This document shows positions 5,846-37,047 of a stretch of 64,000 bases of DNA, one piece after another. The notes under the pieces were generated by a model that did no database searches, was not told the origin of the DNA, and saw only the letters and a program-made list of their open reading frames with translations. This stretch comes from Peribolospora baueri (lineage: Eukaryota), in the NCBI GenBank assembly GCA_029717555.1, contig JAMDHS010000038.1, forward strand, positions 124,001 through 188,000, written 5' to 3'. Every line of letters begins with the position of its first letter. Within the stretch, counting starts at the first letter, position 1. The position numbers were made by a program, and so were the translations under genes.

Positions 5846-8800
5846 TCAATATTGCGTACGATCCCTCAACCTGAACCTCTGCAGACCTCCGCGCCAATAC
5901 CAACTGTCGCCACCTCCGACGACGACGGACGAAGGGTCGCCGCGTTGCTCCTGCGGTGAACCATCCCCTTCTTCTCCCGTCCCGCTACCGCCCGGAAGCG
6001 GTGGCGGTGGCGGTGGCGGCGGCGACGGCGGTGACATGCCAGACGCGTCGCGTCCACACGCGCTCGAGCCGTGGCCGGGGAGGCGCTCGCGACTGGCCGC
6101 CCGAGGGTCAGAGAAAGGCCCGAGGCCGTCGAGGGCGCGGGCGCGATCGACGACGGCGGTGGCGGAAGAAGCGTCGTCGGTGGGTGGAGAGTGGTGATGG
6201 TGAACCATCCCCCCCCTCCTCCTCCTCTCTCGCTCCCTCGCCTGCGCTCTCGCTTCCGACACCGCCTCGTCCGCCGCTTCGTACGAGCCTGGCTCGGCCG
6301 GTCTGCGAGCCCTGCCGGGGCGGATGGGCGAGGAGAGGGTGGAGAGGGTACGAGGGCGAGCGTCGGTGGAGAGGGTACGAGGGCGAGCGTCGGTGGAGTG
6401 GGTACGAGGGCGAGCGTCGAGGTGGTGCGCATCGGCGCCGTTCGTCGCGTTGACAAAGGCGTAGCTACCGTCTAGGAGGGGCAGGTCAGACGCGGAGGGA
6501 GGGTGATCATACGAGGGAGCGCGGGCGAGATCGCCGGCGAGACTGGGACGGGATCCCGTCTGCGGCGGAGGCGAGCCGGCCGGAGTGGCGAGCGGGAGGT
6601 AGTCGAACGAGGAGCCGGACGAGCGCGAGGGCGAGCGCGGAGAAAGAGAGACAAAGGGCGACGCGGCGGAGCGGGTGTAAGGGGGGGAGGCCGAGTTGGG
6701 GATCGGAGGCGACGTCAGCTCGGTGGCCCGCGTGCGCCGAGCGGTTTGAGGAGCGACCTGCGCCGCCGCGCTCGTGCGGTGGTGGCGCGCTGGCCGACCG
6801 CGCGAATGGGCGGGGGAGGATGGTGGTCGTGATCGTGGTGGTCGTCGTCGCCGGCGCTCGGACGAATCCGCCCGTCTCCTTCCAACACGGCCACCGCGCT
6901 GGTTGTCCGTCGCCGCCGCCGACGACGACGACGTAGCAGATTCATCGTCGGTGCTCCGTCGACCAGCTCCATCCTCCTCCTCCGACTCGTCCTCCCAACC
7001 GCCACTGTCATCGTCGTCGTCGTCGTCCTCCTCCTCCTCGTCGTCGGAACGCTCTTCTTCTAGTCTCTCACTCCCCTCTTCCTCCCGCCGTCTCCGCCGC
7101 CGTCTCCGTCTCCGCGCACCACCGCCACTACCACCACCACCACCGGACGTCGACGCCGAAGGCCGCCTGCCACACGAGCACTGATGCGACCCTTCTTCGT
7201 CGGCCCCCGCCGCCGTCGCCCTCCACCCGCGCGGACTGAGCGAGCCCTCAGCGTAGACCATATTGCTCAACCCCGGCCCTCCCCACCCACCACCTCTCCC
7301 GCCGCCGAGGACCTGTTCACGCAATCCGATCTGCTCGCTCGCCCGCTTCTTCGCCGCTGCATCGTGAGCGAGGCGGAGACGGCGCAAGTGGGAGTGGACG
7401 AAGGAGAGGGAAGAGGTGGACATGAGTGCCCGCCACGCGCCTGCGACGGGACGGAGGAGCGGGTGAAGGGTGGAGGGAGAGCGGGAGGAGTGGGTCGAGC
7501 TGGAGGAGGTGCCGGTTCCGACGCGCGACTCGGCTCTCGCGTCCACGTTGCCGTTGCCGTGGCCGTTGACGACGACGCGCCTCAAGCCGGCGTCCAAGGC
7601 GGCGTCCGGCGAGTCGCCATCGACGGCCTCGCGGGAGGAAGCTCTGGAACGCATGGGCTGCAGCTCGAGCCAAGACGACGACGACGGCCCGTCGGCCCTC
7701 GCTCCTGCGGCTGCTGTCCAGCGACGACGGGAGAGGACGTTGCCGTTGCCGTCGCCGCCGGACAAGGTGCTGGCGATCGTGGCGGTACGGGAACCCGTGC
7801 CGAGGGCGATGTGCGTCCTCCAACGTTCCAGCCTGGAGCCGATGTCGAGGTGGCCCTGATGGTGGTGGTCGTCCTCCCCCTCCTCCTCGCCGCCGAGCGT
7901 GGCGAGCTTCTTCCTCCTCGTCCGCTCCTCCTTCTCCTCCTTGAGCCTTTTCCTTTCCTTCTTCCTCCGCTCCTTCTCCTCCCTTTCCACCATGTCCTCC
8001 ACCTCGCCGATCCCCATCCCAGCGCCGACCCACCACCAAAAGCCGAGCCAGCTCTGCCAGAGGGTGAGCGTCCAACCGAGGCCGGGGAGCCACCAGAGAC
8101 GATCGTATTTGATCTGTGCAAAGTAGATGGCGCAGTTGAGCGTCGCGAGGCCCATGGCGCCGCCGCCAAAGGCCGCCGTGCCGCCGTCGGTGCGCCATGC
8201 GCGCCTGCGGTTGACGAGCACGCCCCAGATGACGAGGGCGAGCGAGTAGAGGAGGGCGAGGGTGGAGTTGCAAATGCTGCGCACCGCATCGCCCAAGTCT
8301 TGCCGCTCCGCCTCGACGGCAAGGTCCATGAACTCCATCCCGGAGGAGGCCAACGCCAAAGGGACTGGTGGGAGGAGAAAGGGAAAAGGACCATGTGAGT
8401 GCATGCGACACTGCCGACATGCCCTCTTTCGACGGCTCACCGAGAAGCCAGCAGATCAACTTGGCTTCGAGCCTCGACGGGAAGAGAAGCGTCAAGAATT
8501 GAATGAGCGTGCACTGCGGGAGAGGGAGGCGTGTGAGCGACAGAAATGATTAAGAAAAGAAAGGGAAAACGAAAACGCACATGACACATGGCGGTGACGA
8601 CGGACTTCATCATGAGCCAAAGGCCGGTCTCGGCGTCGGTCCAGGAGCTGTCGTCGTCGTCGTCGTTGGGGGGCATCTCGACGGCTATGTAAGGAAACAT
8701 ATAAGGCCTCTCGTGGGCTTTTGCCTGTAGCCAGGCGAGGACGACGTGCATCTCGGCGCAGAGGTTGAGAAGGAGGAAGAGGGTGCTGCTGAGTTGGAGG

Positions 8801-26107: not shown

Positions 26108-26223
26108 GGTCCGACCAGAAGGCGGAGTGTCCTGGCGTTGTGCCCTCTCGGATGCTTGCACTGCCGCTGTCAAGGTTGAGATACAAACTACCCGGCAAGT
26201 GTCAGTAGCCACGTCGCCGTCCT

Positions 26224-26235
26224 CCTCGTCTCAGG
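26224..26235. repeat. Left target-site duplication CCTCGTCTCAGG
   Basis: Identical 12-mer at 31705-31716; directly abuts the (GATT)n tail. Confidence 0.85.
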
Positions 26236-26245
26236 TCGATTGATG

Positions 26246-26309
<64 letters not shown>
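26236..26309 (-). repeat. (AATC)n 3' tail of the LINE, (GATT)n on + strand, about 17 units
   Basis: Tetranucleotide run between the LINE 3' UTR and the left direct repeat. Confidence 0.9.
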
Positions 26310-28433
26310 AGTCAACTTAAAGTTTTTGATACAAGCCAGCCGGAGGCCTAGAGAAGACTAAAAACACGACTACCGTGGGAAAGGGAAGCTGCGGCGGATC
26401 GGGACGCGAAGGGGGAGTTCGGCATACGGAGAGAAAAGAGAGGGGACTACGCTGGCAATGTGGGGCCAAAGATAGTGGACAAGGGCGTGGTGGCAACATA
26501 ACTCATACAAACTGTGCGGAGACGCCAATGGTGAGGGGCGCAGGAGGACGCATCAGGGGAGGGATGCAGCAGGGCGGCGCAAGAGGGTTGTTGGCAGCCA
26601 GCGCTCAGGACGCCAGCGCTCAGGAGAGGCCGGGCCGACCAGAACTGCCCGGCACGGTGTCATCCGAGGAGGGTCGGCTAGCGCCTGAACCCTCGGCAAA
26701 GGACAAGGGGAAGCGTCCAGTGTCTCGAAGGAAGTGCACTGTGAGCGGGAGTGCCTTCGGGTGAAACAGGAGCGTGTGTAGGTCCGTGCTGGGAATACGG
26801 CGGGCGGATAGCTCGCTTTGGAGTCGACGTCGGTGACTCTGCCATCGGGGGCAGAACAGGAGGAAATGGGCGACCGTCTCGGGGCGCCGGGAAGAGGGGC
26901 ACTTATCGTCGTCGGCGGCCCGGACTCGAGAGAGATAGCTGCGGAGCGCGCAGTGGCCGGAGCGAAGTTGGACGATGAGCGCCGCCGCACCGCGCCCCAG
27001 GCATGAGAGAGCATCGAACGCGGCTTGGGGCGACACATCCCGGCGGACGTGGGCGTGCCACGCTCCCGCCATGCTCTCTCGCAGACCGTAGTTTGGCCCA
27101 GGGTCGTCGGCCCCATGCCGCCATTTCCGAACCATTTTAGCCGCCGACGGGGAGCGCGGGAGGGACTGGGAAGGCTGTCAACGTCCGGTCCCAGGGGGAG
27201 GAGCGGACGGCGAACTGGCAAGTGGCGGCAGCGTCGGCGATTTCGTTTTCAGGGACATCGGAGTGGCCGGGGCACCATCTCGCATGGGGGGGCGGCTAAT
27301 GCGCGTAGAACGGCCTGGTTGTCGATGTGTAGCCACACCTCGCGGGCTCGCGTGTCTCCTTCGGTCCCGTCCCAGCATTCGAGCACGATGTCCACGGCCA
27401 GAAGGACCCCTACGAGCTCCGCCTCATAGAGTGTGCGAACCGCAGCGGAGCTCAATGACGTACGATGCAGACCGTTGGGGCTACCGCCGCCGCTTCGACG
27501 ACCGACCATATTTTGAGCGTTGGCTGACGACGCCGCATCCCAGGGCGGGAGGCGGGATGGTGGCGCTGTCGGTCGGGAAAGCCGGGTGGCGACGGGGTCG
27601 GAGTCCGTAGGCGGGCGGCGGAAAGAAGGTGCGCAGGAATAAGTCGGCTTGCGTGGGGGCCGAGGAGACTGACGGTGGCTCCGATGTCGAAGCCGAGGAG
27701 TCCCGGAGAGGGAGGACGCCGGTGCTGGAGGGTGGTTCGCGGGCGTACCGCGCCGCCGACCAAACGGTCGTACTGTCGAGTCCTTCCAAAAATTTCCGCC
27801 AGTGAAAACGCTTGGCCCTGAGAATGCCTGATTTCAAGCGCCGTCGCGCTCGTCGCAGTGATTCCTTGAGGTCGCCGAAGCCGGGAGAGCTGGGGTCGGC
27901 GCGTCGGGCTGCTCGCTCACAGCGCTTGACATCCCGGACCAGCGGGTTTAATACCTCTGGGTCCCACCACCGTTTAGCATAAGGGGAGGGTTAGCCCTAG
28001 GGACGTGGGCGTGCATGGCCAGCTGGAGGGCCACCGAGAACCGGGCTGCAGCATCGTCCACTTGGCGGGCGTACCCGGTATGCCTGGCCAGTCGCGTAAG
28101 TTGTCGCGCACTGACGCCACGACTTCCTCGAGATCAGCTGCCTTCCAGTTGAGCGGGCGGGGCAGTGTGGTGTAATCGGGGGGGGGGGTTGCAGGGCCGA
28201 GCCTGAAGGCGTACGAGCGCATCGACTTCTCATACCCTCCGCGAGTGCTCTTGTTCCGAGGGGCAGAGGTGCCAGCCGGGCGACTGCTCGCACACGCAGG
28301 TATCCTGTGCCCTACGCCTCGCTGCTGGCCATACGGAGGTGGGGCACATGGCAACTAGCAATGACTGCCCAATCCGCGCCGCACGACGTCAGCAACTGGA
28401 AGACGACCCCGCCCTCTCCGACAGTCTCTACTG

Positions 28434-29210
28434 ATGCTGCCTCCCTCCTCCACAACCTTGAGTCCGACCCCCCCTCCGGCTGACACCGACCGGGTCACAT
28501 GGCTGCGTGTAAAGCAATTTAACTGCAGACGCAGCGATAGCACCCTCCACTCCCTGTTGCACGATGCGGACACGACGATGCACCACATCCTATGCTTGCA
28601 GGAGCCCTACTTCATTCCCACCACTTTCCGCCTTCCCTTCTACCGCAACTGGGAGCCGGTTCTGCCTCCCTCACCCCCTGGGGCGACCACTGACCCGTCC
28701 ACCCGTCCTAGATCGGCTATGTTGCTCAATACCCATCTCCTCTCCCCCCGCGAGATCTCCGTCTTTCCGGTTACTTCAAGGGATGTCACGGCAGTCCAGC
28801 TCTCCCCTCCCGCCGGGGCACCTGCAACATGGCGCCCATTCACTCTCGTCAATGTATACAACCCCGCCCCGGCACGACTTCTGCGCTCGGCCCTCTGGCC
28901 GACCTCCTGACCCGCGTCAGCAACCTGGGGCGGCACCCCCTGCTCGTTGTTGGGGACTTCAACCTCCACCATCCGACGTGGAACCTCAGGGGGTACACGG
29001 TGGAAGAGGCCGATGCGGATCGACTCCTGGCGCTGGTCATGGCGCACGGACTTGAGCTAGCGTCGTCGACCCGCACCCCGACCTTCTTCCGAACCAACCC
29101 TCCGGCCGCCACTTGCATCGACCTCGGCTTCGCCTCTGGTCCTGCGCGGGACAGCCTAGGACGCGCGACCCTCGGCTCCTTCTCCCATGGGTCGGATCAC
29201 ATTCCAATTC
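28434..29210 (+). pseudogene. LINE ORF2 AP-endonuclease domain, inverted relative to the element, one frameshift near 28880
   Basis: Full set of APE motifs spread across ORFs 28434-28910 and 28829-29239. Confidence 0.9.
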
Positions 29211-30265
29211 GAGCGCAGCGGGGGGCGTTCGCACAGTGAGCGGCCGTGTGGTCGAACCCACAGCAGCGGTAACACTGGCGGATTGTTGGGCGGGACTTCT
29301 GGGTGGGGTGGATCTCATGGCCGATGGCGACGTGCTGCTGGATGGCCCGGTTGGCAGCGTCTTTGCTGCCCAGAAGCACGACCAGGCTAGATCTAGGCCT
29401 GGGGTTGGGGCCGGTGGCATGGGAGGGGATGGCCCACCGGGCACGTACAACGTCCTCCCGAAGGAGCCCGTTGTCCGCGGCCAAATCGCCCAGGCACTCG
29501 GGGTCATGGGGGGCGAACGAGGTCGGAACGCCGTGCACGAAGACCGGGTACAGACGGGCCTTGAAGCGCCCATTTAAATGTCGAGAAACTTCTCCAATAC
29601 TGTTAAATGTACGATTTAATTCAGAAACCCCTCGTGCAAAGCGCCCACCCAAGAGCGGTCGGACGAGAGCCGTGTCACTGCCGCGTCCGACAAGAGGTGG
29701 ACAACGATCTCCTTGGACCTGGGTCGAACGGAGGCGGCCTTGATCCTGACGTCCTCCCCTGCCGATTCCTTCACCGCCGCACGAATACGGTTGCAAAGGA
29801 TCGTCGGCGGGAGGTCAACGAGAACAGGGGCATGGGGTTGGCGTTGAGCGAGAGTCACCGAGAACTTGGTGACCGGGGACCGGGGTTCCGAGGTCGCTGT
29901 GGCGGTCGAACGCGACGTTGTCTTGCGTTGGACGACGCGCCAGGGAGAAGGGTGACTTTGCTGGGAGGAGGGCAGCCCAGAGGATTCAGCGCCGCCGGCC
30001 AGGTCGGCCGGCACGCCCTGGGTCCTGGCGTCCATGTTGAACACGGTGTCCCGGACCTGGCACACGCGTTCATCCAGCTTGTCCAGCTTGGTCTGGATGT
30101 CGGCGGTCGGATCCGCCTTCGCCTTGTGGGCAGCGTCGACTTTGGCCATCTGGCCGGCAAGGAGGAGGTCTTGAAAGACCGTCGCATCGACGGTGATCTT
30201 CTTGGCTTTGAGTTTTCTGGCACGATCCGCCTGTGGTGTCGCGATGTTCTTCATGGAGAGGACAG
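29211..30265 (-). pseudogene. LINE ORF1 (gag-like, CCHC knuckles), frameshifted near 29620
   Basis: Coiled-coil IQTKLDKLDERV, YPVFVHGVPTSF, RSSLVVLL, RQCYRCCGFDHTAAHC. Confidence 0.88.
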
Positions 30266-31704
30266 ATCTTGATCAACCACGGCGGCGGGGAAGCGTCAAA
30301 CTTCTTCGCATCAAAGCAGAAGAAGCACTTGTAGGGCTGTAGGCGCTCCATGAAGCGCCGTGCACCACCGTGCCAACACGACTGCTCGATGGCCACAGGG
30401 TGGCCCTCAGCCAGCGTCATGTTCGTCAGAATATTCTCCGTGACGCCATTCAGCTTTAGGTCCCTGTGGCTGGTCATCATGATCAGCCTTCCGGCCTCGG
30501 GCTTGTCACCCTGGGCCCTGATCTTGGCCTGCGTGGTGGCCTTCCCACGTCCTCCCATCCTAACCAGGTGCGGTTCGACGCGCTCGCCACGTATCAGTCG
30601 TTGTCAGGCTTGCTCCGCGTCATACTGGGCAACAACGTCCGCTTCTCCGCGTGTGGAGAACCCGCGCCGCCAGTACTCCACCCCTGCAAAGCGGTCGCCG
30701 TAGAAGCGAACGTCCTGCAGGTCGGCGATCGTTGGGAAGTCAACGCCGTCCGTAAAGGAGCACAGGCCAGCAACATTGTGCGGCTTGAGTAATGAGCTCA
30801 TAGAACTCATGGCGCATTGGGATGACAGCGCGGTTGAACTGATCAAGATGATTCAGCTCAACTAGGGAGTTTGGCTTGACAAAGATATGGTCTGCCGAGA
30901 AGGTGCCCTCAAAGTACGAAGAGTCTGAGTGATTTGCTTCTGTTTCGGAATCGGAAGAGAGGAAGGAAAGGCGGTCGCCCTCTTCTTCTGACGATGCGGT
31001 TCGAGACGGCCGTGGACGGCTAGCGGGTGCGACAGACCGAACGGCCGGTCGTGGGCGGTGCCGGCAAAAGACGGCTGTGCTTCTTCTGGTCTGAGGCACC
31101 TTCGGGGACGAGGGAGGCAGACTCGAACCATCCCCCCGTGCTCGTCCAAGCTGCGTTGGACGTATTAAACGTCGAAGGAACCCGACTCCAACCTCAACCT
31201 AAACCGTGCTTCAGATCCTCCGTCCCCTCTCTTGTCGTCGTGGGCGTCCAGGCTGAATCCCGGAAAGGGCGAGATCGCGTAGTACGCTTTGAAGACCTCG
31301 CACGCCTCCGCGATAAGCAATGTCTTCGACATCCCACGGAGGCACGCCTGCCGACCCATGAACTCCATCCGGTGGAAGCGTGCGTAGAAAGCGGCTTCTT
31401 CAGCCACACTGCGTGCAGTGGCTCCCACACGGCGCTGTCCCCTGCGGCGGCGCGTCGACACCGAACCCTCCGGCATCTCCTCCTCTGGCGTAATGGTGTT
31501 GTCGAACGCATGATCCGAGCTGTAGTCGGAAAAGTGGTGTAGGCGGACATCGTGGAGGTCGCCAGCTCGGACCAGGTGGTTGCGTTCAGCCAGGCTGTCG
31601 TTGGACAGGCGAAAGCCTTGCCCTTGTCTTGATCAGCATTCCTCCCCAAGTGCTTGCGAGTCGGCACTAGTTTTGCGGGGGAGAACCTTTTGGCTTGTTT
31701 CTTG
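30266..31704 (-). pseudogene. Endogenous viral element: 5' part of a dsRNA mycovirus RNA-dependent RNA polymerase gene (Curvulaviridae/Durnavirales-like)
   Basis: Joined frames read ...DRFAGVEYWRRGFSTRGEAD...EQA*QRLIRGERVEPHLVRMGGRGK...AGRLIMMTSHRDLKLNG...SCWHGGARRF...FFCFDAKKFDASPPPWLIKI. GRLI matches motif F and DAKKFD is motif A (DxxxxD). No introns; stops and frameshifts present. Support is strong for 30266-30930 and weaker for 30930-31704. Confidence 0.82.
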
Positions 31705-31716
31705 CCTCGTCTCAGG
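31705..31716. repeat. Right target-site duplication CCTCGTCTCAGG
   Basis: Identical to 26224-26235. Confidence 0.85.
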
Positions 31717-31826
31717 CACATGTCAGCAGATGCACGCGCCGCCGCAGTCGACCCCGTGCGAGTCCGATCCGGACATTCACCTGCATTCTTCCTTCCACCA
31801 TCATCGTAGCTGCATCTTGATTCATC

Positions 31827-33744
<1,918 letters not shown>

Positions 33745-34653
33745 GGTTCGCTTTCGCTTTCGTTACGTGGATTTGTATCTGTACTGTTGAGCCCGTAATA
33801 GATGTCCTCCACTCTGGTAAAAACGTACGAGCTGGCCAATGGAGAGCAATGAGTGGCACGGTCTTTGAGACTGTCATGCGATTGCGGAAAAATGGGGGAC
33901 TTTGATTTTAGCTCGACCTAATGGTATCGTGGTAGAGTAGTGTGAACCGAGAAGAACCATTTGAGCGTTCAATCAAGCTCCCTTCGCAGCTGTAGAGAGA
34001 GTAGCAGGTGGATAGACGAGGTGGGTGAAGAAATGGAAAGATAAAGCGGGTAGGTAGAAGGACGGGGTGTATAAGTCAAGCAACCGAGGAGAGGTCACAT
34101 ACGCAGGGCTATGTGTAGTAAGGTGGCCACCAATGACAAACTGAGCTACCACCTCCGGGTCTACTTGACAGTGCCAGCAGAAGCTGTATCAGTGTGAAGA
34201 GCAACATGGTCAAGGAAGAGAGACTTTCGATCCTTGCTCTCCCTAAGGACAACCTCCACGTCTACCTTCTCCATGGGCCGTCGTCTTTCATCCACCAGCT
34301 GAACTTGGTCTCTCAAGTGTGACTGACCATCGCCTAGGAAAGGCCAAAAATAAATAGATACCTTGAGAAGAGTTCTGGTGAAGTCATCTCTTTCCGCCAA
34401 AAGGTTCACTTTGTACTGGAGCGTTGCCGTTGTCACCGAGTGTGTCGCAGCCTGAGTGACTTGACCGGTGTTACAAAATATCGTTCATGATACGTGTACA
34501 GACTTGACTTGCATCAAGGATGCTACAGAGTGGTGGGTGAGGGTGAATGGTACACAAGAGAGGAGAAAACGGGCAAGCCGGGAACATGTCGTATGACGTC
34601 GCATCACTCTCGGCCCCACCCGAGCCGCAAAATCGAAACTTGGCCATAGAAGC

Positions 34654-36798
34654 CTAGAAGCCAATGAACATATGCCTCACAGACCTCCACCTCTCCCAAA
34701 CCACTTCCCAGAGCGCGATGCTCACGATGTCGCCCATGTGCTCTTCATCGCCGCTTCGCCTTCGGTCTCGATCGTCACCGCCCTTGAGCGCTGATGCAGG
34801 AGCGCGCCCGCCCACGAAGCTACGTCCGGATCCACTATCTCTAGACAAAGGTCTCTGGGCCGGAGCGGAGGAAGAGAGACTTCCTCTGTTTTGGCTCCGA
34901 CGCTCATCAAATACGAGGAAAGACTGTGCGGCCAAGGTGGGTGGGCCAAGTTCGAGGTCGCTCACTTCCTCGTCGGCTGTGATGTTGGCAACTTGACCGT
35001 ACTGGTCCCCGGCGACGGTGAGATCGTGTCCATCGTCATCGACGATACTAGCAAAAATGTTGACATCTTTCCGGCGCACATTCGCCTTCGTCTTCGTTCT
35101 GTCGATATCCTCGTCGCCATCCTCACCACTGGAGCTGCTGTGTGGAGACAGAGCGCCGACCATCTGAGCGAGGAGGTTCACGGATTTGGAAGGGAAGAGC
35201 GCAAGAGGAAGCAACGCGAGGTATGGAGGGCTGACGAAGCTGAGTATGAGGTGGAGGTCGAAAGCGGGGACGGGGACGGACATGGAAGGAGGGTCAGCGG
35301 CTTGCGCGAGCGCGAGGACAGGGTGGATGACGTCGACGCCACTCCAGCCGCTGTGTGACGTTGCCGGAGTAGCGTTCTTGCTAGATGCGAGCTCAGATTC
35401 GTAAGGGTCCCAAACGCTCATGTCCCCGTTTTCGCGCTGCGCGAACTGAACGTGCTTCCTCAGCGCCGATGCGAATTGATCTACTCCGCTCTCCCATCGA
35501 GAAGACCGGGAGGTGGTTGCTGGCGTAGGAGTCCGATCTCCACTCCCGCTCCACAAGGTGGAAGTGTCCCCTTCATTGAGAAACATATCGACGGTCTCCT
35601 CGTCCAAGTTCATGAACCGACGGACGATCGAGCCGAGGAAGAAGCCCTCCCGCTCTCGGTTCGCTCGCGCCTGTCGGACGGCCGCAGTGGCAGGTGCTAT
35701 GACCGGTGGACGGGGAGGGAGCCTCCGGGTCGCCGAAGGTAGTCGGCCGTTACTCGAGCGAATGCTAACGGTCTGACTTCGCGACCCGCTCCTTCCTTGG
35801 CTGACTCTGGTGGCCGAATTAGTGAGGTGACCGCCTTTTTCCATAGACGCCATCGATGAACCAGCGCTGAGGCACGTGTTGCTCCGCTTGCTTGCCTCCG
35901 AAGACGCCCTCCCCTGTGTTCTATGCCTCCTCTTACGCGGAGCTACGCTCGATGCAGGTAGTCTCGAAGACGAAGTTAACGCGTTATCCATTCCCGCGCT
36001 CTCAGCCTGTGGTGTGAAGCCGAGAAGCGCCTCGACCTCTTCGGCATCTCGAGAGCGTCGAGGGGTGGCCGCGCCATCGCGCACCAACCGTTCTTCCTCG
36101 CCATCCGAGGAGGTAAAGTTGAAGCTGGTCGTAGGGGAGAGCGGTTCGCCGAACTCGGAGATTCCAGAAGCGGCAGACAACGGCCCCGACGGTGGGGACC
36201 TAAGCAATGTAGAAGACGTCGTAGAGGGTCGTCGAGCAGCTACAGCGCGCTCCCATCTTCGGGAATGTCGAACTGATCCAAGCTCTTCCCTAGAGGAGCT
36301 CCCCGAACCGTCCAACTCCTCTTCCACTTCGTCGTCGAAATCGAACTCGCTCCCTGCTGCGCTTGTCCACTCGCCGACGTCCGGTAGCGACGGCGAACCC
36401 TCTAGTTCGTAGCCGTCCGTAGAAAACGTTGACGCTGCGTAAATATCGTCTCCATCATCGCTGTGTGGGCTTCCGCCAGTGGACCTGAAGCGACCAGTGC
36501 CGTCGTGAGCTGGAAGGGGGAAGGTGGGCGGCGAAGTCGAGCGGCCAGGAAAAATGACGGACCAATCCGCCGCCTCTTGAGCCAAGCGGGCAGCGGTCGA
36601 GCCGCCAACCTTGGGCGCGGAAGATTGAGAGGCGGTCGAGGCGTTAGACATCGACGGCCGTCGGCCTTCGACGCCGTGTCGAGAGGTGGAAACGTCATGA
36701 GGCGACGGGCCGCCATGCACCACCTGCGCGTTCACCTCGTCGACGCCGTGTCGCTCGGTGCGTGGAGGATGAGAGTGCCTGGGCTGGTAGAAGGCCAT
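34654..36798 (-). CDS. Hypothetical Ser/Arg-rich protein (about 715 aa, single ORF)
   Basis: Long open frame, likely start MAFYQPR at 36798. No recognised domain. Confidence 0.7.
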   Translation of the reverse strand: MAFYQPRHSHPPRTERHGVDEVNAQVVHGGPSPHDVSTSRHGVEGRRPSMSNASTASQSSAPKVGGSTAARLAQEAADWSVIFPGRSTSPPTFPLPAHDGTGRFRSTGGSPHSDDGDDIYAASTFSTDGYELEGSPSLPDVGEWTSAAGSEFDFDDEVEEELDGSGSSSREELGSVRHSRRWERAVAARRPSTTSSTLLRSPPSGPLSAASGISEFGEPLSPTTSFNFTSSDGEEERLVRDGAATPRRSRDAEEVEALLGFTPQAESAGMDNALTSSSRLPASSVAPRKRRHRTQGRASSEASKRSNTCLSAGSSMASMEKGGHLTNSATRVSQGRSGSRSQTVSIRSSNGRLPSATRRLPPRPPVIAPATAAVRQARANREREGFFLGSIVRRFMNLDEETVDMFLNEGDTSTLWSGSGDRTPTPATTSRSSRWESGVDQFASALRKHVQFAQRENGDMSVWDPYESELASSKNATPATSHSGWSGVDVIHPVLALAQAADPPSMSVPVPAFDLHLILSFVSPPYLALLPLALFPSKSVNLLAQMVGALSPHSSSSGEDGDEDIDRTKTKANVRRKDVNIFASIVDDDGHDLTVAGDQYGQVANITADEEVSDLELGPPTLAAQSFLVFDERRSQNRGSLSSSAPAQRPLSRDSGSGRSFVGGRAPASALKGGDDRDRRRSGDEEHMGDIVSIALWEVVWERWRSVRHMFIGF

Positions 36799-37047
36799 TT
36801 CGTCCCAGCAAGGTAATGGAAAAACGAAGTAAGTGCTGAAGGAGGACGCGGACGACGGATGCGTTGTAGGACAGACGGCGGTCCTCAGGATCGAGGGAGA
36901 CAAAGAGATGCCCGATAACAGGAGTATGCCTTATCATGGCGTAATCAGGCACGTGATCCCAGGAGATTACCGGTTACTCAACAACATGCGCGGCGCTGTT
37001 GTCATCCTTTTCTTCTTTCCATTCCGCAAGCTAGGAAGGAAACCGAC

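Follow-up and report, generated by a model that had tools for sequence, protein, structure and literature searches.

The window analysed here, a 64-kb stretch of DNA, carries between two divergently oriented host genes a composite of viral and retrotransposon sequence. Its viral part, on the minus strand at 31704-30263, represents the 5' portion of a Curvulaviridae-like RNA1 as a damaged DNA copy, comprising a leader and residues about 1-334 (of about 600) of the RdRp and ending directly past motif A. Directly adjoining it, in identical orientation, is a LINE (30262-26238) that begins at its family 5' end, and an exact 12-bp direct repeat brackets the whole 5.5-kb virus-LINE composite. Read along the minus strand, the features are as follows.

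31705-31716, minus strand: upstream copy of the repeat, CCTGAGACGAGG (minus-strand letters), directly 5' of the viral leader
31551-31704, minus strand: leader of 154 nt, read as the viral plus-strand 5' untranslated region from its length and a motif comparison
31240-31550, minus strand: N-terminal coding part of the RdRp (profile match 31521-31258, positions 12-99, E 1.9e-9)
30893-31239, strand not given: insertion of a genomic repeat with at least two copies in the genome, recognised from depth, a second copy and the alignment join
30776-30892, minus strand: RdRp piece beginning DHIFVKPNSLVELNHLDQFNR (profile match 30922-30773, positions 96-145, E 1.1e-8)
30607-30775, minus strand: RdRp piece ending in AQYDAEQA directly before the stop (match 30777-30607, positions 145-201, E 1.2e-16)
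30604-30606, minus strand: in-frame TGA, where Heterobasidion RNA virus 6 (HetRV6) has Trp
30263-30603, minus strand: RdRp piece with GGRGK, GRLIMMTSHRDL, WHGG and motif A, CFDAKKFD (match 30600-30265, positions 204-315, E 2.2e-51)
29203-30262, minus strand: 5' part of the LINE, consisting of a leader plus an ORF1-like frame with a CCHC zinc knuckle at its end (from translations; depth two to three times single copy over 29201-30262)
about 28217-29209, plus strand: inverted LINE piece with a second knuckle and an apurinic-type endonuclease domain (from Pfam and contig joints)
26310-28216, minus strand: rest of the LINE ORF2 and 3' region (weak RNase_H match, E 0.024, at 27140-27295, and motif strings)
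26238-26309, minus strand: simple-repeat tail (AATC)18, GATT on the plus strand (period 4, 18 copies, 97% matches)
26224-26235, minus strand: downstream copy of the repeat, CCTGAGACGAGG, 2 nt past the LINE tail

The flanking host genes are represented by an ALG11_N-matching ORF at 26012-25665 (minus strand), about 200 nt past the LINE tail and repeat, and by AAA-ATPase exons at 32469-33346 (plus strand). Other fungal-type ORFs in the window match ZPR1, AIM3/BBC1, SelO and homeobox, and a 758-aa ORF at 34657-36930 has no relative at E <= 1e-10, its matches in the Atlas being only weak. The ZPR1 piece falls nearest a cluster in which only a few members carry labels, most of them Basidiomycota, an observation that serves as a lead only. 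Unitigs from DNA runs bridge both the LINE-virus junction (29716-30938) and the junction of virus and host gene (31210-36000); one of the runs, X1, is possibly the sample behind the window assembly and so does not count as independent support. With host domains on both sides and unitigs over the junctions, the viral sequence is continuous with host chromosomal DNA, and the element is a genomic, non-retroviral endogenous viral element.

The viral identity of the element was examined with the translation of 30792-30266, in which an X was put at the TGA. Among 483 candidate proteins this query matched six at E <= 0.01, all with PF00680; three are named viral polymerases (HetRV6, Sclerotium rolfsii unassigned dsRNA virus 2 and Phlebiopsis gigantea curvulavirus 1) and two are genomic Apophysomyces proteins. 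The top match was the HetRV6 RdRp (E 1.7e-50, 53% identity, 99% query coverage), a protein of 606 residues to which the fragment aligns without gaps at residues 159-332. An index-free search of 1.84 billion representatives returned 38 proteins at E <= 0.001, with 12 at E <= 1e-30. Three of the 38 (P0035, P0036 and P0042) were rejected as spurious, being bacterial repeat adhesins. At motif A the Pfam family RdRP_1 was found below threshold (E 0.047, 12.9 bits against a cut-off of 23.9).

The whole window was translated in six frames, and the 1966 resulting ORFs of 15 residues or more were scanned with a profile of 18 full-length relatives. The profile found four collinear minus-strand pieces covering profile positions 12-315, the next best match having an E value of 5.5, and of the 40 columns within the element's range that are invariant among the 18 relatives, the element keeps 38. 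The same six-frame search gave no match to profile positions above 315 anywhere in the 64 kb. Tblastn matches of P0006 and P0007 (residues 542-571) to 28692-28621, at E 3.3-7.6, were set aside as chance, the profile finding nothing there. The palm domain is incomplete, motif A (CFDAKKFD) being present and motifs B and C (GDD) being without a match in the window. The element derives from an RdRp gene but is not a polymerase gene; production of a polymerase is impossible because motifs B and C were never copied, and the element is most likely inert at present.

A sequence-only reading of this DNA had called a Curvulaviridae-like RdRp fossil and had proposed similarity, profile and phylogenetic checks. 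The strings it reported (VRMGGRGK, AGRLIMMTSHRDLKL, WHGG and FCFDAKKFD) all lie where it put them, on the minus strand in a single stop-to-stop frame (30603-30070). Its identification is borne out by the protein and profile matches, in which viral RdRps come out best with HetRV6 at the top, and by the trees described below. Its concern that matches might be confined to the region up to 30930 is allayed, as the distal part is matched too (profile positions 12-99), and its limits of 30266 and 31704 come within 3 nt of those derived here (30263 and 31704).

For phylogeny, a quick tree of 57 rows was built without the query, the three spurious proteins and six short ones, and limited to lengths of 350-800 residues; a careful maximum-likelihood tree was built from 33 rows after 24 long-branched or distant rows had been dropped. 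In the careful tree the element groups with named curvulaviruses in a 12-row clade with UFBoot 100 and SH-aLRT 99, and the quick trees agree. The named members of this clade are HetRV6, Phlebiopsis gigantea curvulavirus 1, Lentinula edodes bipartite virus 1 and Sclerotium rolfsii dsRNA viruses 1 and 2, all with basidiomycete hosts (hosts as named in the sources); the genomic proteins of Apophysomyces and the bipartite viruses associated with ascomycetes fall into other clades. Inside the clade the position of the element has support of only 53/24, and its end branch measures 1.06 against a median of 0.51. Since the element has its own, long end branch, its source is not among the sampled viruses, and the lineage it records has no representative in the sampled sequences. 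The source virus is, judged from sequence, probably an orthocurvulavirus-like bipartite dsRNA mycovirus, of whose RNA1 plus strand the first 1.1 kb would have been copied.

The reading frame of the copy is damaged in several places. The TGA at 30604-30606, for which an origin from TGG had been thought plausible, aligns to a Trp of HetRV6, and the viral similarity stops at WLIKI (30266). A frameshift that had been put near 30790 is confirmed close by, near 30775, where two profile pieces meet. Residues 56-98 of P0003 match the N-terminal part (tblastn, E 5.8e-4), and an ATG lies at 31550-31548; its frame differs from that of the profile match at 31521-31258, and a further frameshift probably lies between them, near 31500.

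The segment at 31239-30893 is a later insertion of a genomic repeat into the viral copy. Profile positions 99 and 96 meet across it though about 335 nt of DNA separate the two pieces, and once it is left out CAC (31242-31240) joins GAC (30892-30890) in frame, giving a gapless alignment to relatives. In contigs of public DNA runs the depth is about twice that of single-copy DNA over 30893/30909-31239, a second copy of the 347-nt repeat exists elsewhere with few differences and a loose end at 30893, and unitigs break at 30909/30938 and 31210/31239 in organisms A and B alike. The repeat has no flanking duplication longer than 3 nt and no convincing terminal repeats. A search of Rfam gave nothing at gathering score in the window and nothing up to E = 1 in 30800-31800, and blastn of 26200-32400 against the 64-kb window gave zero non-self matches, so that no other copy of the LINE or of the 347-nt repeat lies there. 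The frameshifts that the earlier reading had assigned to 30900-30960 are instead the edge of this insertion, and the TAA it listed at 31165-31167 is present but sits inside the insertion and not in viral sequence.

Several observations bear on where the viral sequence begins. Leaders of near-full related viral contigs (IMG/VR) are mostly 80-160 nt long. The motif AAGCCA stands at nt 9-14 from the 5' boundary of the element; among 19 near-full contigs, four carry it in their first 30 nt (at nt 11, 11, 12 and 19), against a background of 0.005 per 30 nt; these four contigs belong to another clade than the element, and the motif is absent near the ends of the five contigs of the element's own clade (L001-L005). 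The element starts 6-15 nt 5' of L001-L005 as measured by blastn with the 347-nt insertion subtracted, bearing in mind that contig starts may differ from true termini. Blastn of the leader against 27 viral contigs yielded coding matches only and no leader alignment. We place the putative viral 5' end at or near 31704. The earlier suggestion that the copy may reach the 5' end of the segment is thus upheld by the leader length, the position of AAGCCA and the start relative to L001-L005. The long RdRp N-terminus that had been deduced from some 1.4 kb of sequence resolves instead into the leader, a coding part of normal length (about 1 kb) and the later insertion.

The LINE is itself rearranged. 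Its inverted piece matches Exo_endo_phos_2 (E 1.1e-13) and zf-CCHC_6 (E 0.0047) in Pfam, and contigs of other LINE copies join 29209/29211 to 28217/28308, with one alignment on the opposite strand. Pfam searches of its stop-to-stop ORFs found no match for the ORF1-like frames and no reverse transcriptase domain (no RVT family); the reverse transcriptase region was presumably lost by internal deletion. Strings on the minus strand we take to be the post-endonuclease linker, RNase H and the C-terminus of ORF2, and four contigs of organism B cover 26891-26905. Because the LINE is rearranged and has no reverse transcriptase, its continuity from 30262 to the tail rests on weak domain matches, these motif strings and read joints. 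Other LINE copies match up to 30262 and then diverge, as seen in a 6949-nt contig of organism A and in loose ends in X3 and X4 of organism B; since the match of these copies breaks off exactly there, the 5' end of this LINE family lies at 30262. In organism A, position 30274 is covered by one more contig, with a 4-nt gap, which may belong to some other copy that reaches slightly past 30262.

The 12-bp repeat is the longest common substring of the two 200-nt flanks of the composite. A length of 12 was reached in 2 of 2000 shuffles and in 4 of 1973 random 200-nt pairs from the window, which puts a chance 12-mer between two such flanks at about 1-2 per 1000, a figure that takes no account of the position of the copies at the edges. 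Around the LINE alone, the longest string common to both flanks is 6 nt and lies away from the edges. We read the repeat as the target-site duplication of the whole composite. As in a template-switched retrocopy, one duplication surrounds both partners and none the LINE alone; the 3' partner is a LINE with its own (AATC)18 tail, inverted internally and devoid of reverse transcriptase, and the 5' partner is oriented alike.

Because both lie inside one pair of target-site repeats, the virus and the LINE seem to have arrived together. The composite very likely stems from a single LINE retrotransposition during which the reverse transcriptase changed template, from the LINE RNA to a viral plus strand, a reading we adopt because the two parts share one orientation, the junction falls at the 5' end of the LINE, the two outer edges are formed by the LINE tail and the viral 5' end, there is a single duplication, and no second half of the polymerase is found. 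We infer the following order of events. Reverse transcription would have been primed at a nick between the ALG11-like gene and the AAA-ATPase gene, the enzyme starting at the (AATC)n tail of the LINE RNA and copying as far as the 5' end of that RNA. It would then have switched to a viral plus-strand RNA, landing directly past motif A, and run off at the viral 5' end, after which the chimera would have been sealed with the 12-bp target-site duplication. Later, the viral part would have received the 347-nt repeat, the stop and one or two frameshifts, and the LINE would have undergone its inversion and the loss of the reverse transcriptase region.

The earlier reading held that motifs B and C are missing because the LINE begins there. 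Their absence is borne out for the whole window by the profile search, but a longer, older element severed by the LINE is most likely not what is seen here; the LINE makes more sense as the vehicle of the viral sequence than as what truncated it. For a cut of that kind, a full-length LINE would have landed in an older RdRp copy just past motif A, the downstream half would then have been deleted, and the 12-bp repeat would be due to chance. LINE insertions into older repeats are common, this island has demonstrably been rearranged by the inversion and the loss of the reverse transcriptase region, and the shuffles did produce a 12-mer twice. Such a history would nevertheless leave a repeat around the LINE alone, where none is found, and it has to dispose of every profile position beyond 315 in 64 kb; the repeat, moreover, lies exactly at the LINE tail and at the viral 5' limit, within 2 nt of the tail and with the ALG11_N ORF only about 200 nt further on. 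We consider this course of events very improbable.

The depth of the RdRp core bears on another origin, in which the junction of virus and LINE formed at some other locus and reached this one through a read-through transcript (5' transduction) or as a segmental copy. Transduction of 5' sequence by LINEs is a known process that would likewise give one repeat pair around virus and LINE together, and the additional contig over 30274 in organism A is unexplained. In organism A, however, the core bin 30401-30800 stands at single-copy depth (128.8, on its own contig), the 5' limit fits a viral 5' end and not an arbitrary host start site, and the original junction would still require a template switch or an insertion, which together make a second-hand copy quite unlikely. 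Also unlikely, if a little less so, is that the element has been kept for a purpose, its transcripts feeding RNA silencing against related viruses or acting on the two flanking promoters. Roles of this sort have been described for endogenous viral elements of insects, and the location between divergently oriented host genes, the presence of at least the N-terminal part in two organisms and the retention of 38 of 40 invariant residues could all be so understood; yet the stop, the frameshifts and the 347-nt insertion reveal no constraint on the frame, and the invariant residues fit youth as well as they fit selection. No present function is evident.

Some indication of age comes from organism B, a sister species about 2% different. 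One of its contigs (7.6 kb) carries 31210-36000 together with the host gene, differing from the window over 31210-34102 by 67 letters and 35 gap letters, and organism B also holds 30938-31239, including the 347-nt repeat. As it carries both the N-terminal part and the 347-nt repeat, both predate the split of A and B. None of its contigs lies over about 30420-30890 at 80% likeness, though contigs cannot show absence. An empty site was seen in neither of the two organisms with data (A and B), both of which carry at least the N-terminal part of the insertion. The change of 2 of the 40 invariant residues suggests, as a rough estimate, a few percent of neutral change since integration.

The route by which RNA viruses that have no reverse transcriptase enter fungal genomes has mostly been inferred. 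At this one locus the scars are readable together: the target-site duplication, the LINE tail, the LINE 5' end and the viral 5' end. With template switching as the preferred reading, the locus would document the route of integration and show that viral plus strands met a LINE particle. It may well capture directly how a fungal LINE reverse transcriptase, on reaching the 5' end of its own RNA, moved over to a dsRNA mycovirus plus strand, and would then keep the leader and 5' terminus of an unsampled orthocurvulavirus lineage, accurate to a few bases. Should chimeras of this type prove common, full-length LINE copies could be screened for viral sequence at their 5' ends, which would offer a general way of finding and dating fungal viral fossils and of recovering viral termini. 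The element also extends Curvulaviridae-like fossils past the Mucoromycota clades reported in the consulted part of the literature source (PMC12548735), to a clade whose named members have basidiomycete hosts. No LINE-mycovirus chimera was found in the literature searched, which is no proof of absence from print.

Compared with the RdRps of Curvulaviridae, the element shows 49-53% identity over the core and 37-47% over 260-301 aligned columns; it is collinear with them from residue about 12 to motif A, shares the 38 invariant columns, and matches viral contigs in leader length and in the distance from the 5' end to the core. It differs in being chromosomal DNA, in lacking motifs B and C and the C-terminal half, and in being broken by a stop, frameshifts and the 347-nt insertion. 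Endogenous polymerases related to Curvulaviridae have been reported from Mortierellaceae (Mucoromycota; PMC12548735). This Mortierellaceae clade and the genomic Apophysomyces proteins P0006 and P0007 resemble the element as endogenous copies from the same viral family in fungal genomes. These Mucoromycota copies are annotated as whole ORFs of about 570-650 aa and belong to other clades, whereas the element is a 5' fragment. Unlike those whole-ORF copies, the element has integration scars that are still readable, and its host is probably a basidiomycete, though this is a lead only.

Its structure finds closer parallels among LINE chimeric retrocopies, such as the U6-L1 chimeras of mammals, which are products of LINE template switching. 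These likewise have a 5' partner RNA fused in identical orientation to a tailed LINE, with one short direct repeat around the whole. In the element, however, the RNA joined on the 5' side is viral (a dsRNA-virus plus strand) and not cellular, and the switch came once a full-length LINE RNA had been copied to its extreme 5' end, not partway along it. The bornavirus-like and filovirus-like elements of mammals are non-retroviral RNA viruses copied by L1, with target-site duplications; they are copies of viral mRNA with a poly(A) tail of their own, whereas the fungal element has no viral 3' end and uses the LINE tail. In fungi, the Magnaporthe chimeras of WEIRD, Mg-SINE and MGL were built from cellular RNAs, and a tripartite element among them has flanking repeats of 14 bp, against 12 bp here (PMC2104539). 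Viral fossil and chimera are thus both of known kinds, and what is unusual about this locus is the completeness of its integration scars.

The LINE joined to the fossil RdRp (30262-26238, minus strand) is internally rearranged, and the viral part of the element carries an insertion of its own:

28217-29236, plus strand: endonuclease-bearing LINE piece, lying inside the minus-strand LINE
30893-31239: 347-nt insertion within the viral part of the element

The endonuclease piece is inverted relative to the remainder of the LINE, and the LINE contains no reverse transcriptase domain. As contigs of organism B, one of the two sources of the public DNA runs compared here, join 27615 to either 28747 or 29016 with the strands opposite, the LINE island is arranged differently in that organism. 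The 347-nt sequence is present in at least two copies in organisms A and B, the second copy differing little from that in the window, and the insertion matches nothing in Rfam, lacks clear terminal repeats, and is not flanked by a duplication.

The window also has two long open frames:

5849-8455, minus strand: 869-residue stop-free frame, no Pfam family
34657-36930, minus strand: 758-residue open frame, no Pfam family

The former is overlapped by long frames on the opposite strand, and GC content reaches 0.70 there and across 6001-8000 generally. For the latter, a search of proteins of similar length returned no relatives at E ≤ 1e-10; the frame represents a lineage-specific gene, or else no gene at all.

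Among the related near-full viral contigs from IMG/VR, L008, L010, L012, and L024 have the motif AAGCCA(C) within their first 20 nt, at 11–19 nt from the 5′ end, and L009 and L025 have shortened forms of it at their extreme starts. The motif may be a conserved 5′-terminal element in one curvulavirus-like clade.

The curvulavirus-like RdRp P0023 (704 aa; Pfam RdRP_1, E = 9.1e-14) has a longest contig of 13,448 nt, far exceeding a viral segment, and may likewise be endogenous. Mucorales genome assemblies also carry annotated ORFs for curvulavirus-like RdRps that are not interrupted: P0006 (573 aa), which lies on a 212-kb contig, and P0007, both from Apophysomyces genomic records. Together with P0011 they form one clade, separate from the element described here.
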